64,000 bases of DNA from Trichodelitschia bisporula (GCA_010356995.1 ML996699.1:216323-280322); one strand, 5' to 3'; shown: positions 1,565 to 14,290, counted from the stretch's first letter. Program-made: numbers and translations. The notes: generated by a model from the letters alone, not told the origin.

Positions 1565-3653
1565 ATGGCGAGGCTCAGCCAGGCGCGTGGTATGACCAGA
1601 CTCGTCCGGTGGCTCTGGATCGCCGCCATCTGCTCATCATCCCTATTGGCCACTGCCCGGCCCGAAGACACCTTTGCATTTTCCGCCGAGGCCATCGAGG
1701 CCGCCGCAAGGGCAGAGGCCGTCGACAACCGTGACCTAGGGAACATTGTCCTGCCGGAGAACGACACCTTCTACACGGCACCGTCGGGTTTCGAGAAGAC
1801 CGCTCCGGGTACTATCTTGCGCTCCCGGCCGGTGCCAAACCCGCTTACCATCAACAACAAGGACGCCATCAACGTGAAGGGAGCATGGCAGATTCAGTAC
1901 CGTACCCAGAACAGCGTGGGTGAGCCGGAAGCCGCCGTCATGACGGTGTTGGAGCCGTACAATGCCAAGAAGAATAGCTTGTTGGTCTACCATTACTTCA
2001 CGGTACGTCCAGCTCAGATATGCTGATACGATGACGCTCGTTGCTAACCGGTGTTGAAGGATTCGTCCTATGGCGGGTAAGCGCATCCACCCTTGCCCAT
2101 TTAGGCATCTGTCTTACATGCACAGTTGCGCGCCGTCGATCGCCTTGCAAGTTGGCAACCGACAGGACAATACCTATGTCCAGCTCCAGTCCCTCATCGT
2201 CGTCGCTGCTCTGAGCCAAGGGTGGTACGTCAGCGTCGCTGACGATGGGGGTCCTCAAGCAGCTTTCGGTATGATCTCCATGAGATTAGGTCAACCACCT
2301 AACGAGAATCAGGCTCCGGCCTCCAAGCAGCATACGCCACGCTGGACAGCATCCGCGCCGTGAAGCAGTCTGGCAACATTACCGGACTCAATCCCGATCC
2401 CATTACGACGATGTATGGGTACTCGGGTGGTGCATTGACCGGTAGTTGGGTACGTCGATCTCGGTGATTCGGGCTGAGAACTGACGCTGTTAGACGACGG
2501 AAATGCATCCGCTCTATGCCCCAGAACTGAAAATCCACGGCGCAGCACTGGGTGGAAATATCCCTAATATCACGGCATTGGTACGGACCTTCAACAAGGG
2601 CGACCGTGCCAGCTTTGGACCTCCAATCATTTTGGGGATGTCGCATGACTACAAGAACCTCTCGGACTGGCTGAAGGAGAACGTCATACCAGGTCAAGAG
2701 GCGGCGCTTCGAAAGGCTGACTACCAGTGCTTTGACTCCAATGAAGCCTATGCTCGGACGGAGTTGGGCATATACTTCAAGCGCACGTACCAGTCGCTGA
2801 TGGACGATCCCGTCCCTCAAAGCGTATTTTACTGGGGTGGTAGGTGATCATTGCATTGGAGTCCTGGGCTTCAACTGACGAAGTTAGGCGTCCAGGGATT
2901 GCGCGCAGTTCCCAAAGTGCCTTGGTATCTTTACGAGGTATATATATCTGCGCTGAGTTAGAGGCTACGCTAACACGTACATAGACAATCTGGGATGACG
3001 CGTCACCTGTGGAGCTCACCGACAGACTCGTCGAAAAGTACTGCGCTGCCGGACACAGCATCTATGTTTGTGGCTTCCCCTACGTTGAGTGCATCGACTG
3101 ACGTGAATAGTATGAGCGGAATCACCAGAAGCTGAATCACAGCGAGGAGTGCATCGCAGGACTTCCCGGCGCTTTTGCCTGGCTAAGAGACCGCCACAAC
3201 GGAATTCCCATCACGCTTGGTTGCAAGACCGTCCAAGTGGATCAGCCATTCTGGGGAGCGCTGACCGATAAGGGCGGCTTATTGTTGCGCGGCTTGCTGG
3301 ACGGATTCCTCGCATATCTGGGGCTTCCGGTCGGGCCGGGGTTGTCGCTAACGGCTCCGAAGCTCAAGCCTGCGCCCGCTGTTTCGGCAGTGCCAGCGGC
3401 GGCTCCCAAGGCACCCAGCGCACAAGGAACCTTACCCAGCTTGCCCAAAGCAGCTACCGGACAAAGGCCAGCACCAAAGGCGACTGCACCAAAGGCTGTT
3501 GCTCCCAAGGCGATTGCTCCAAAAGCAGCTGCATCAAAGGCGGCGGCTCCAAAGGGAACAGTTGCGAAGGGGGCCACGGCTCCAAAGACGCCCAAGGCGC
3601 CAAAAGGAGTTGGCTTCAGCTTTGATGGAGACGGGCTGGACGTGTATGAATAG
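1565..3653 (+). CDS. Secreted lipase, LIP family (Candida antarctica lipase A-like), 8 exons, with an Ala/Pro/Lys repeat tail
   Basis: Hydrophobic signal-like N-terminus (WLWIAAICSSSLLATA). Family motifs FYTAPSGFEKTAPGTILRSR, AWQIQYRT, CAPS and GWYVSVADDGGP. Nucleophile motif GYSGG near 2418, with candidate catalytic Asp (TIWDD) and His (LNHSEE). Seven GT-AG introns splice in frame. The start could be 1553, 1565 or 1592. Confidence 0.9.
3460..3610 (+). repeat. Coding repeat with roughly 15-nt period, (AxAPK)n, in the lipase C-terminus
   Basis: Translation PAPKATAPKAVAPKAIAPKAAASKAAAPKGTVAKGATAPKTPKAPK; recurring gcTCCAAAg-like units in the DNA. Confidence 0.85.
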
Positions 3654-9639: not shown

Positions 9640-10771
9640 GGCGACGGTTTTGAGTGAGGATGTTCAAGGCGGGATGGGGATAGGGAGCGATCGCGGCGAC
9701 GACGAGGTGTAGTACGGTGTTGAGGTGGGATCGGGGGTCGCGGTGCAGACTATGACGGTCTGTGGAGAAGAAGAGCCGAACGGAAAGGATTCGAAAGGCA
9801 TTGTGGGCGAGCGGGGGCCTTTTTGACGGGATTGAAGGGGTGGTATGTGGTTTGCGCTGTAGAGCTCGTTCTGGTTGCTTCACTTTCGGCGAGGAATTTG
9901 TCGAGCTGCGCCTTGGGCTGGGGATCAGCCGGAGGAGGAGCTGCTTTGATCCGAGGTTCGAGGAGCTTGTGGCGGTGCACTTGCTTACCCTCCACGCCTT
10001 CTCAACGGTCAACCCGCAAGCAAGGGTATTCGGATGCAGGCTGTCACGGCTGTCACTCGGGGGGCGAAGATGAGGGCCGGTACGCTTTCAGGCACTGCCT
10101 GTCGGCTTCTCTGAGCCAGAAAGTTGATGACCAGCCGATCCTCTGCTTTCTTCTCTTTGTCTTTCCTCTTGTCGCGCTTCACCGAACACAGCACTGTTGC
10201 CTTCAAAGTTGCATCTTCACCAAGCGTATGTACTTGGTTCGCCCGTCCTCGCATGGTTTCTTGCGCACTTTACCGGGTCTCCCGTAAGCCGCGGCGAACC
10301 GCCCCATGTGCCGTGGCTCACGTTAACTTCGGGTATCTGTCGGCGTGTTTGCCGGGTAACCTGTCTGACTTCCGTCACGAGACAGCAGCCATCACGCATC
10401 CGGAGGCGAATGACAGCTAACATAGCGATGACTACATCCGTACACAGGTGCAGTAAAGGTTCTTTAGCTGTGTCTAACAGTCAGAATAGTTGTCCTTTCT
10501 TCATGGTCTAGTTCTGGATCATAATCGACTTTTATCATCTCATAGTCGGCGAATCTGAACTTCCAATTCCGACGTCACGTCCACACCGTTGTAAGGTACA
10601 GGACATGCAGCGACGCGCAAGAGTTCTCCACACGTACGTAGACCCAGGGAATTATATTTCTACTGCAACTCCAATCGGGTATATAGAGGGCGGCTCGACC
10701 AAACCCCTCGCCATGCCAAACGGAACCGTTCCCTACTCTGAACCAGCCCTGCCAGCAAGGCTGAAGCAGTC

Positions 10772-10799
10772 GTAATCCAGTACGGAGGTAATCCAGTAC
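10772..10799 (+). repeat. 12-bp direct repeat in the panB/UBC8 divergent intergenic region
   Basis: gtaatccagtac-ggag-gtaatccagtac. Confidence 0.75.
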
Positions 10800-11526
10800 A
10801 CAGCACGCAGGGCCAACAGAGACAGTTCCTTAAATTGAGGGGAAATAATTCAGCTTCGACGTTGTTATTGTGCCTTCTCTGAACCAGGTAGGCCTTACTC
10901 TAGCTGCACAAATTTGAGATTCATAATGTGGTGGCGACCGTTTGAGCCTTCTGCCGACTCCCACGATAACTAGCAACCAGTGTACACTCCACTGGAGTCT
11001 AGTTCTAGGGCCTCAGGCAAAGGTCAGATATTGAAGGTGAATTTAGTAAGGGTGACTGAGTAGATTGCGGTGCTTGCCAGCTCAACTCCTTCACCCCACC
11101 AGCTTGTCGATGAGGCCTCATGCGCCACGCCACATTCAACCTGGCGGTTGCCAGCGCGGGGCCTAGCTGTCATCCCCGCTGCCCCGGTCGCGGCCACTCC
11201 TGCCAACTCCACAGCCCGCATCTCGATGTGAACGTCCTCCTCCTTTCACTCCCTCTACTTAAGCTCTTTTTCACGCTGTTGTTGTTGAGTTTTTTTGCCT
11301 TTTACAATAGCATCTTGCTTTTTTGCGCCTTAGCCGTTGCCGTACTATTCCCGCGCTCCGAACAAAGCCATCCAGCACCCCGCACTTCCGCCTTTAACCG
11401 CATCGCCATCATCAAGCTTGTCGCCCCCCAACTGTTGCCGCCGAGTGTCTTTATGCACTACGTAGCGCCTGCTATCCCAGATTACAACACACTTTCTGCG
11501 TTTTAGCGTTCAACAAGCGGTCCAAA

Positions 11527-12470
11527 ATGAGTTCTCCAAAGCGTCGGATCGAGATGGATGTAGGTGGAACCCCGCAGTCCTTTGAATGTGGCAAAGCTAA
11601 CAGTTCGCAGGTCATGAAGTCGGTGCTCCGTGTATACCTAACTCGTGGGAATGACTGAATTTGCCTAGGATGTGCAGTTCCGCCCACCGCGGTCGACCGG
11701 TCTGTACTAAGGGTGGATAGGCTCATGAGCGACTACGAAGTGACGTTAGTCAACGACAACAGTATGTGGATACTCACCCTTGATCTTAGGATTGCTAACA
11801 TGCATAGTGTTTGTATTCTGCTATCTTGCTCTCCCTAAACTCACACTTGTGTAGGCAGGAGTTTTATGTCCGGTTCAAAGGCCCCGAAGAAAGTACGTCA
11901 TAACCATCCTTATCGTTCGTTGCTGACAGCAACAGCACCATTCGCCGGTGGTCACTGGAAGATCCACGTCGAGATTCCTGATCAATATCCGTACAAGAGT
12001 CCTAGTATTGGCTTCGTCAACCGCATTTTCCACCCGAACATCGACGAGCTGTAAGGAACCCTGTCGCCTCTCGCTCTCCCGGACATACTCTGACGGTTGG
12101 AAGCTCCGGATCTGTCTGCTTGGATGTGATCAATCAGACATGGTCCCCAATGTATGACATGATCAACATCTTCGAGGTCTTCCTGCCACAGCTGCTCCGA
12201 TACCCGAACCCGGCGGACCCGCTCAACGGTGAGGCTGCGGCGCTGATGATGCGCGAGCCAAAGAACTACGAGGCGAAGGTCAAGGGTGAGTACTTCGTGC
12301 CGTAGCTTTCTTAACTAAGCAACGTAGAATACGTCCTCAAGTATGCCACCAAGGAAGCGGTGGATGAGGCGGGCAACGAAGATGAGTCTGAGAGCGAGAT
12401 CAGCTCCGTCGGTAGCTACGGAGAGGATGAGGAAGATGAGGAAGCAGCGGGTAACATGGAGGACATATGA
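11527..12470 (+). CDS. UBC8: Ubiquitin-conjugating enzyme E2 (UBE2H/Ubc8 type), 9 exons including 8-nt, 3-nt and 1-nt microexons
   Basis: Spliced product [68 protein letters not shown]...[22 protein letters not shown]..., with HPN motif, catalytic Cys and an acidic tail. Confidence 0.95.
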
Positions 12471-14290
12471 GGCCCCGACCAGCGGCAAGGGAGGGCCTAA
12501 ACTTTTCATGAATCATCTGGTTTAGGGGCTTTACGGGTATACCTTTCGGTTTGTACTCAGGGGAGAATGGAGACTTGGCGCTTTTGCGACTGACTCTTGC
12601 CGTATTCAACTTCGGAAGGGGACGGAGTTTTATGTTTCGTCTGTTCGGGGGTCTGGTTTTAGGTACTCTATATCAACGGTTCGCTGGCTCTGGATGATCG
12701 TCACGACTACATCGTCCCCTCTCTCCGGCTAGCAGCCATGTACCCACACCTTTTAACAGCTTCGGAGTCATCCTTGACTTGAACTTTCAGACTCACATGT
12801 ACGATGAACAAATGGCCGGCACCGAGAGATTCTGTGATAGAACCCCCCAAAGGAGTGATGGCGAGCAGTAAGATGGTCAAGGTGACCTAGGTGCGTCTCC
12901 TTGACAAAGCCATGACGGTTCGGAGCCAGGCAGGCACAGCGGATGGTTTGAGAAAGGTCAGAGATCTGGTTCTTGCTGCCTGATATGACTATCTTGCGAG
13001 ATCGTTGTTCGCTTGTTCTCACGAGCGGCGGGAATCAGCACTCTTCTAAGAAGAAGTGTAGTTCATGTCACGCGATAGAGACCCTGTCAGCAACCCTGGT
13101 GTGTCTATATGCGGAAAGGTGGCATCCTTGGATTTGACAGAGCATCGTACGGCAGGCTTATGATGTTGCAGCACCTTACACCGGCAACGGATGTCTGGTT
13201 CTAGACGGCCCTGTGGTGACATTCTAAATAGCAGTGCTAAAATATCGAGCAGCTTCCGAGTCTGGGCTATTGTATGCGGCGCACAATGGAACACAGAAGC
13301 AAGCGTCCGATCCGGATATCAGTTATGTCACAGCAGATGCCTCAATGATTATACGTTACTTGCATTGGGGCTTGTCGTCCACTCGAACCATATTCTGGCG
13401 CACAACGTCTTCAAATGTGGGATATATAAAGCACGCGGGTGGGACGATAACTGGACACAGCATGAGGGGCGGTTCGCGTGCCCAGCCACGATACTGTACG
13501 GTACTGTGATACGTACCGGAGACACCGCCCGAAGCGCACAACATCAGACTATTGGCCATTCCCCCACTCAACCAGCCGTGAAATCTCAAACGCAACAACC
13601 AGAATAACCTCCCGCACAGCAGCGAAAACAGCGGAGATATAATTGTAAGCGAAGTCTAATCACCCCGCCATTGGGGGAAGACTCTGCTCAGCCCTCTGTC
13701 CCCGCACCCAATCATACTACCCGTGCCTCTCTCACGGAGTCCCAGCGACCGCCGGATAGCATGACGTCGGGCGCATCGAACCAGCTGAGTGCACCAGACA
13801 CCCAGCAACCCCTCTCCACTCCGACACCTGGATACGGTTCCTGCGCTCACTCCCCCGTCAAGACGAACGCACGCACGCCGCAGCCCCCGCCGTTGCGGTG
13901 TGCCGTCGCAACCCTTGTCACACCCGTGCCCACTCCCCCGTTCCATTCGGCAAGCCCGAAAAGCAACCAGTCTACCACGGCAGCTTGACCGACGGACCCA
14001 GTGCCGCTCTGGGGATGTGGGGGCTTTGGGGGCTCGGCATGTGCTTCGGGGCATCGTGTCTGACCGCGGTCGTGCGCGGGGATTGAAGGTGAGAGGGGGC
14101 CCGGGAATGTGGGCGAGGCTGATGTTAGGATCGGGAGCTGCAGCATGCATGGCGAGAAGGAGCGACGGGGGCAAGGGGTGGCGAGATGTTTGTCAGACTG
14201 TGAGGGGCGTGAGATGGGGCCCGGGGGGCGGTCTTCTTGCAGACCTCTCGCGGGCGATTGCAGGCATGGCGAAGTGTGTTGCCCGTTTGT

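Follow-up and report, generated by a model that had tools for sequence, protein, structure and literature searches.

Evidence for a One-Nucleotide Exon in a UBC8-Type Ubiquitin-Conjugating Enzyme Gene of Trichodelitschia bisporula and in Related Fungal Loci

Introduction

Exons of one base are already in print for plant and fungal genes. The APC11 gene of Arabidopsis thaliana possesses a constitutive 1-nt exon, which had been missed by annotation and was studied with reporter constructs; its authors also argue for sequential intron definition (Guo & Liu 2015, PMC4674806). In a single genus, Fusarium, 20 orthologues of the rarely expressed P450 gene CYP621A carry a 1-nt exon G (AG-G-GT) documented by RNA reads, in a paper that calls itself the first fungal case (Nelson & Syed 2026, PMC12940212). 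Long-read annotation of the basidiomycete Coprinopsis cinerea lists 13 exons of 1 nt in 13 genes; in the available passages of that work the genes are unnamed and accompanied by no conservation analysis, and its available supplementary files, the list of the 13 genes not being among them, hold no match to ubiquitin-conjugating or UBC (PMC12230235). Among orthologues in the Pezizomycotina, canonical introns situated one nucleotide apart have been described as arising through the loss of one of two introns, the published route being an alternatively spliced stwintron (Fekete et al. 2017, PMC5587772).

The DNA analysed here, termed the window, is a 64,000-nt stretch from the fungus Trichodelitschia bisporula, with approximately 55% G+C and many short introns, as would befit a filamentous ascomycete. 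We estimate at roughly 93% the probability that the T at position 11808 is a genuine 1-nt exon of a UBC8/E2-H gene possessing nine exons and eight introns. As in APC11, one base stands between two spliceosomal introns of a nuclear gene; unlike APC11, which is a different gene, from a plant, and was characterized with reporters, the present case draws on transcript contigs and comparative data, and its flanking introns are 46 nt each (PMC4674806). With CYP621A it shares its occurrence in the Pezizomycotina, a mid-codon base within a conserved motif, AG/GT flanks, phase-1/phase-2 boundaries, and incorrect public gene models. It differs in that the base is a T, matching neither exon-side splice consensus, in that the gene is a housekeeping E2, and in that the layout occurs in 40 deeply diverged clusters, where it lies beside exons of 3 and 8 nt (PMC12940212). 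As with the stwintrons, which likewise occur in genes of the Pezizomycotina, splicing takes place twice in succession at a single site, but whereas a stwintron nests one intron in a splice signal of the other and has no exon base separating the two, here the introns are neighbors with a coding base in the middle (PMC5587772). UBC8 therefore joins a very small class of genes already in print (APC11, Coprinopsis, Fusarium), in which its deep conservation in a housekeeping gene stands out. A literature search, with subscription journals outside its coverage, did not find UBC8 micro-exons.

Materials and Methods

Transcript evidence was taken from the contigs of two public runs, derived from one sample in one study, whose RNA label is a guess; these contigs were aligned to positions 11300-12800 of the window. 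With exon 8 as query, metagenome contigs yielded 452 confirmed relatives, and the analysis used the best 80. Seven of these (L017, L025, L048, L060, L061, L069, and L080) were left out for a missing or unmatched anchor peptide (SDY..NDN or QEF..), leaving 73 loci. Splice signals were counted in 41 representatives, the window included. The upstream micro-exons were parsed in 43 loci with a strict filter, namely G at +5 of every donor. The annotation survey drew on the best 120 hits, which included 65 named fungal genome models; the SDY..NDN exon is present in 43 of these models.

Results and Discussion

Gene Structure

The gene lies on the plus strand, as do all of its parts given below. Its coding exons measure 33, 8, 3, 41, 1, 38, 115, 182, and 143 nt and, once joined, yield an open frame of 187 codons; the introns measure, in order, 51, 50, 49, 46, 46, 43, 53, and 42 nt. 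The coding part of exon 1 (11527..11559) begins with the ATG at 11527, and the transcript contig reaches further upstream. Intron 1 (11560..11610; 51 nt, GTAGGT...GCTAAC...CAG) is followed by exon 2 (11611..11618), which consists of 8 nt (GTCATGAA), the letters CATGAAGAT being found between the sides of the contig joint. Intron 2 (11619..11668; 50 nt) has the donor GTCGGT, with C at +3. Exon 3 (11669..11671), seen in the contigs, is the 3-nt sequence GAT with AG before it and GT after it, and contributes the last base of the Lys and the first two of the Met in VMK-M-L. Intron 3 (11672..11720; 49 nt) has the donor GTGCAG, with A at +5, and a branch-like TACTAAG. The joint of the contigs at this place, 11561->11721, holds nine letters, which were resolved by hand into the 8-nt and the 3-nt exon.

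These two small exons (11611-11618 and 11669-11671) were absent from the original prediction; they are supported by RNA and are conserved. The pair was recovered in 26 of the 43 loci parsed, and a fused exon of 11 nt in a further 11. The remaining six could not be parsed, and the window is one of them: the donor of its intron 3, GTGCAG, fails the filter, though RNA confirms the intron. The fungus evidently tolerates weak 5′ splice sites (GTCGGT at 11619-11624, GTGCAG at 11672-11677) in RNA-confirmed introns of this cluster.

Exon 4 (11721..11761; 41 nt, G CTC ATG AGC ... GAC AAC A) occupies contig positions 674-714, and exon 6 (11855..11892; 38 nt, G CAG GAG TTT ... GAA GAA A) positions 716-753; between them lie the single-base exon and its two introns, which are treated separately below. 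Downstream, intron 6 (11893..11935; 43 nt, contig joint 11892->11936) precedes exon 7 (11936..12050; 115 nt), and intron 7 (12051..12103; 53 nt, contig joint 12050->12104) precedes exon 8 (12104..12285; 182 nt), the query of the homology searches. Intron 8 (12286..12327; 42 nt) is likewise marked by a contig joint (cut +1), and the coding part of exon 9 (12328..12470) closes with a TGA stop at 12468-12470, the contig continuing past 12800. No Rfam family reached its gathering score within 10500-13500, and the antisense strand at the locus has no notable open reading frame, the longest being 84 amino acids.

The 1736-nt contig overhangs the region 11300-12800 by 402 nt on the left and by 213 nt on the right. 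This overhang implies either a 5′ leader of approximately 630 nt or longer, or a merger with a neighboring transcript. A 128-codon open reading frame (11120-11506) is situated within that leader.

Encoded Protein

The family UQ_con (PF00179) is recognized in exon 7, which carries the core of the domain and its HPN motif, and in exon 8, with scores of 47.4 and 54.8 bits, respectively, against a cut-off of 27 (Pfam). The full-length spliced orthologues L001 and L020 reach 135 bits over profile positions 9-139 of 140. In the translation, the HPN motif is followed a few residues downstream by the Cys of GSVCLDV, encoded by exon 8; we take these to be the functional residues of an E2, the Cys being the catalytic one. 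The closest database proteins, 93-100% identical over exon 8, are termed "E2 8," "E2 H," or "Ubc8" by their sources. The gene accordingly named probably encodes a ubiquitin-conjugating enzyme of the UBC8/UBE2H type, a housekeeping type, the UBC8 assignment following the database names.

The Single-Base Exon and Its Transcripts

Intron 4, here called intron a (11762..11807), is a phase-1 intron of 46 nt seen in the window sequence, the contigs, and orthologues. It reads GTATGT...GCTAAC ATGCATAG, with GCTAAC 9 nt before its end and CATAG as its terminus. Exon 5 is the single T at 11808 (position 715 of the 1736-nt contig), which stands second in the Met codon of VNDN-M-QEFYV. Intron 5, here called intron b (11809..11854), is also 46 nt long, lies in phase 2, reads GTTTGT...CTAAACTCACACTTGTGTAG, and ends with TGTAG; its branch motifs (CTAAAC/CTCAC) are only near-consensus (CTAAA, CTCAC). 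The genome around the T therefore has the form CATAG-T-GTTTGT, both neighboring introns having GT..AG ends. Their 46 nt each compare with 42-53 nt for the other six introns of the gene. Introns a and b are thus two separate short U2-type introns, each with a GT donor, a branch-like motif, and a YAG acceptor. Slicing of the window gave the same coordinates for the 1-nt exon and for both introns as the original prediction. The hexamer GTTTGT, which had been cited there as the donor of other genes as well, is present at 3066, 18949, and 35728 (minus strand), where the donors are putative.

The contigs of both runs (X1, 1736 nt; X2) are 100% identical to the window, without a single differing letter. 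They omit five stretches, all but the first of which have GT..AG ends, from which it follows that the contigs are copies of spliced RNA. At the junction 11761->11855 one letter, T, stands between the two sides in both runs, which is the included form that the original prediction had proposed to look for in RNA. The resulting ACA-T-GCAGG cannot be generated by any single intron, because the genomic base is G, not T, at 11762 and likewise at 11854. With canonical splice sites the junction can be read only as two introns with T11808 retained between them, and in the mRNA the joined A-T-G encodes the Met of VNDN-M-QEFYV, a conserved segment of the UBC fold. The T-included form alone is seen in the contigs; contigs drop rare variants, so that minor isoforms (T skipped, or the donor at 11766 used) could escape. 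The introns are without contig cover, and the contigs are uninformative on retention or splicing intermediates.

The consequences of other outcomes were computed. Omission of T11808 shifts the frame to ...NDNSRSFMSG... with a stop after 87 codons; retention of intron a also shifts the frame, and retention of intron b introduces a stop codon. It had been implied that every route other than inclusion of the T shifts the frame; this is correct for skipping of the T and for retention of intron a, but a GTGGAT donor at 11766 joined to the acceptor at 11854 remains in frame.

Two other descriptions of the site were considered and rejected. It is not a stwintron: the RNA keeps the T, and the flanking bases disallow both the [D1,2] form (G-GT...AG-T) and the [A2,3] form (A-GT...AG-G). 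Nor is there a sign of tandem duplication between introns a and b, within-locus alignment against shuffles giving a mean z of 0.5, and 0.6 for the window.

Conservation among Orthologous Loci

The 73 loci retained from the best 80 of the 452 relatives fall into two groups: 56 carry 50-175 nt at the Met codon, and 17 read plain ATG. A shared parse, A-GT..AG-T-GT..AG-G, applies to 55 of the 56 unspliced loci, the exception being L024, which possesses a single phase-1 intron (A-GTCAGT..CAG-TG). Ten of the 17 ATG loci are spliced at every scorable interval. The other seven (L023, L028, L034, L053, L058, L066, and L076) are genomic, keeping other introns and having none at the Met codon. A second formal parse is possible in 13 loci, by means of a GC donor, an intron of 30-36 nt, a different base in the middle, or, in L009, a second AGTGT. 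Grouping the 56 loci at 80% identity of the intervening sequence gave 41 clusters, 40 of which have the 1-nt exon. The original prediction held that the codon is assembled as A-T-G from three exons, and this is borne out by the T in the spliced contigs and by AG-T-GT in 55/56 orthologous loci; the two-intron arrangement that it proposed to seek in UBC8 orthologues was found in those same 55 loci and 40/41 clusters.

The splice signals of the 41 representatives are similarly uniform. G is present at +5 of donor a in 41/41 and of donor b in 39/41, and a pyrimidine precedes the AG of intron a in 41/41. The sequence CTRAY lies 9-27 nt upstream of the 3′ end of intron a in 38/41, and strict CTRAY in intron b in 19/41. 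Donor b is the weaker of the two, a non-purine occupying +3 in 17/41 (T in 12, C in 5, and G in 0) versus 3/41 for donor a. Shuffling of the intervening sequences produced a usable AG-T-GT in 3.5% of trials, versus 41/41 representatives, and the arrangement is far beyond what chance would produce. Identity at third codon positions of exon 8 has a median of 0.47 among the representatives, which indicates that the lineages are deeply diverged; the nearest relative of the window is 84% identical in exon 8.

A pair of loci bears on the junction in another lineage. Between the spliced contig L020 and the genomic locus L033 the match is 97-100%, and across the junction L020 agrees at 57/57 bases with the mRNA that the model of a 1-nt exon predicts from L033. 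The pair thus adds another, independent instance of this junction.

Some further features of these loci may be recorded. Introns a and b are equal in length in 5/41 representatives (the window, L012, L022, L051, and L077), possibly by chance. Other introns have been lost singly in some lineages that retain the one-base exon: the intron between KGP and GG.W is missing in L014, L019, L073, and L075, that at HPNID/GSVCLD in L051 and L070, and that at AKVK/KYA in L009, L024, and L070.

Route and Order of Splicing

Acceptor a and donor b are one base apart, and simultaneous assembly of spliceosomes on both would be implausible. With sites so placed, the two introns would be excised sequentially, by intron definition. 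In recursive splicing, which removes very long introns, a ratchet point consists of AG-GT, a zero-length exon of which no base is kept. The site in UBC8 is not a ratchet point, since the T separates AG from GT and stays in the mRNA; one coding base is kept here, and both introns are minimal in size. The second step would nevertheless resemble recursive splicing, in that there are two steps and the first ligation would complete the following 5′ splice site on its exon side.

As to the order, removal of intron a before intron b is mildly favored. It fits the co-transcriptional order, and ligation of the upstream pair would turn the context of donor b from AGT-GT into CAT-GT, which is closer to the consensus exon side; donor b is, moreover, the weaker of the two sites. 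In the case of an artificial 1-nt exon in potato invertase, the downstream intron was removed first and the exon was partly skipped (cited in PMC4674806).

That partial skipping is one of the observations that would favor regulation at this site. One may suppose that inclusion of T11808 is conditional, the skipped transcript being frameshifted and degraded by nonsense-mediated decay, so that UBC8 is switched off. The premature stop after 87 codons would be located upstream of later junctions, and the weaker donor b across lineages is also congruent with such a switch. We nonetheless regard it as unlikely. The skipped form is absent from the contigs (though these drop rare variants), UBC8 is a housekeeping-type gene, and the conservation of the arrangement is explained equally well by the difficulty of precisely losing two abutting introns.

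Public Gene Models and the Alternative Donor

A public protein of 187 amino acids from Trichodelitschia bisporula (P0005, "hypothetical protein") matches the window at 100% identity throughout exon 8. It is reproduced letter for letter if the alternative in-frame donor GTGGAT (11766..11771) is joined to the acceptor at 11854, SM replacing M, and if the 3-nt exon is skipped. The RNA contigs contradict P0005 at both places, none of them using the donor at 11766. That P0005 and the RNA-supported protein are equal in length is a coincidence, one Met having been lost and one Ser gained.

The reading embodied in P0005, a single intron of 89 nt from 11766 to 11854 that gives VNDN-SM-QEFYV with the junction AGTATGCAG and no 1-nt exon, has in its favor an open frame, the exact match of P0005, and three more named models that read SM. 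We judge it very improbable. The contig joint in both runs shows T and not GTAT; the donor at 11766 has A at +5, where donor a has G in 41/41 lineages; in lineages with the donors GTGAGT, GTAAGT, or GTACGT, a donor 4 nt further in would give no Met; and all 17 of the loci without intervening sequence read ATG.

The 1-nt exon with its two introns is seldom recovered by annotation. N-M-QEF is read in 2/43 named models with the upstream exon among the best 120 hits, and 41/43 are wrong there; a further correct model, from Delitschia, escaped the search pattern of the survey. The other models of the 43 comprise four reading SM, four without the 38-nt exon, 11 that read through from AT-GT, 14 that do so from A-GT, and eight otherwise garbled. 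The original prediction had stated that gene predictors miss 1-nt exons, with which both the error in P0005 and those in 41/43 of the named fungal models from these best 120 hits agree.

Possible Artefacts

It might be argued that the spliced contigs derive from a processed, retro-copied DNA gene and are therefore uninformative on splicing at this locus, the RNA label of the runs being a guess. This has very little to recommend it, and is if anything less credible than the reading of P0005. A retrocopy of spliced mRNA would show the T anyway; the contigs are 100% identical through the untranslated flanks 11300-11561 and 12327-12800; ten more fully spliced loci read ATG; and the L020/L033 pair has the same junction in a second lineage. 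That the T is no real exon, the assembly containing an indel error or the strains differing, is a general possibility only, with practically negligible probability here, since an independent data type matches the window in every exon without a differing letter, no single-intron reading of the genome yields ACA-T-GCAGG, and AG-T-GT recurs in 40 further diverged clusters.

Age of the Arrangement and Intron Loss

The two-intron layout appears to be old, since it persists in lineages that are nearly saturated at synonymous sites. Lineages that possess one intron or neither fit later, individual intron loss, the direction of change being our inference from the sequences. Protein models, in which introns were inferred from translated text, supply examples of both kinds of single intron. 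An in-frame intron b by itself, of 57-63 nt, is suggested in Penicillium subrubescens, P. oxalicum, Aspergillus tanneri, and Coniosporium tulheliwenetii, and intron a alone, at 51-54 nt, in Penicillium malachiteum, Penicillium sp., and Venturia effusa. The class-level span of the arrangement is read indirectly, from such named protein models only.

Loss of intron b would leave a phase-1 intron, as in L024 and some Penicillium and Venturia models, and loss of intron a a phase-2 intron, as in Aspergillus, other Penicillium, and Coniosporium models. These single-intron lineages suggest a simple way for intron positions to come to differ by one nucleotide. Loss of either intron abutting a 1-nt exon suggests a second route to such shifts, distinct from the route through stwintrons (PMC5587772). 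We incline, by a little, to the view that the 1-nt exon of UBC8 is ancient in a large share of the filamentous ascomycetes, which would make it the most widely conserved exon of its kind so far observed, and that it may have been a natural halfway stage toward one-nucleotide intron shifts.

The RNA and comparative data show that the spliceosome in filamentous fungi can cope with a single-base exon flanked by two minimal introns of 46 nt. The dozens of diverged lineages that share the arrangement constitute a natural series of variants on the sequential use of abutting splice sites, and UBC8 could be a test case for gene prediction that is aware of micro-exons.
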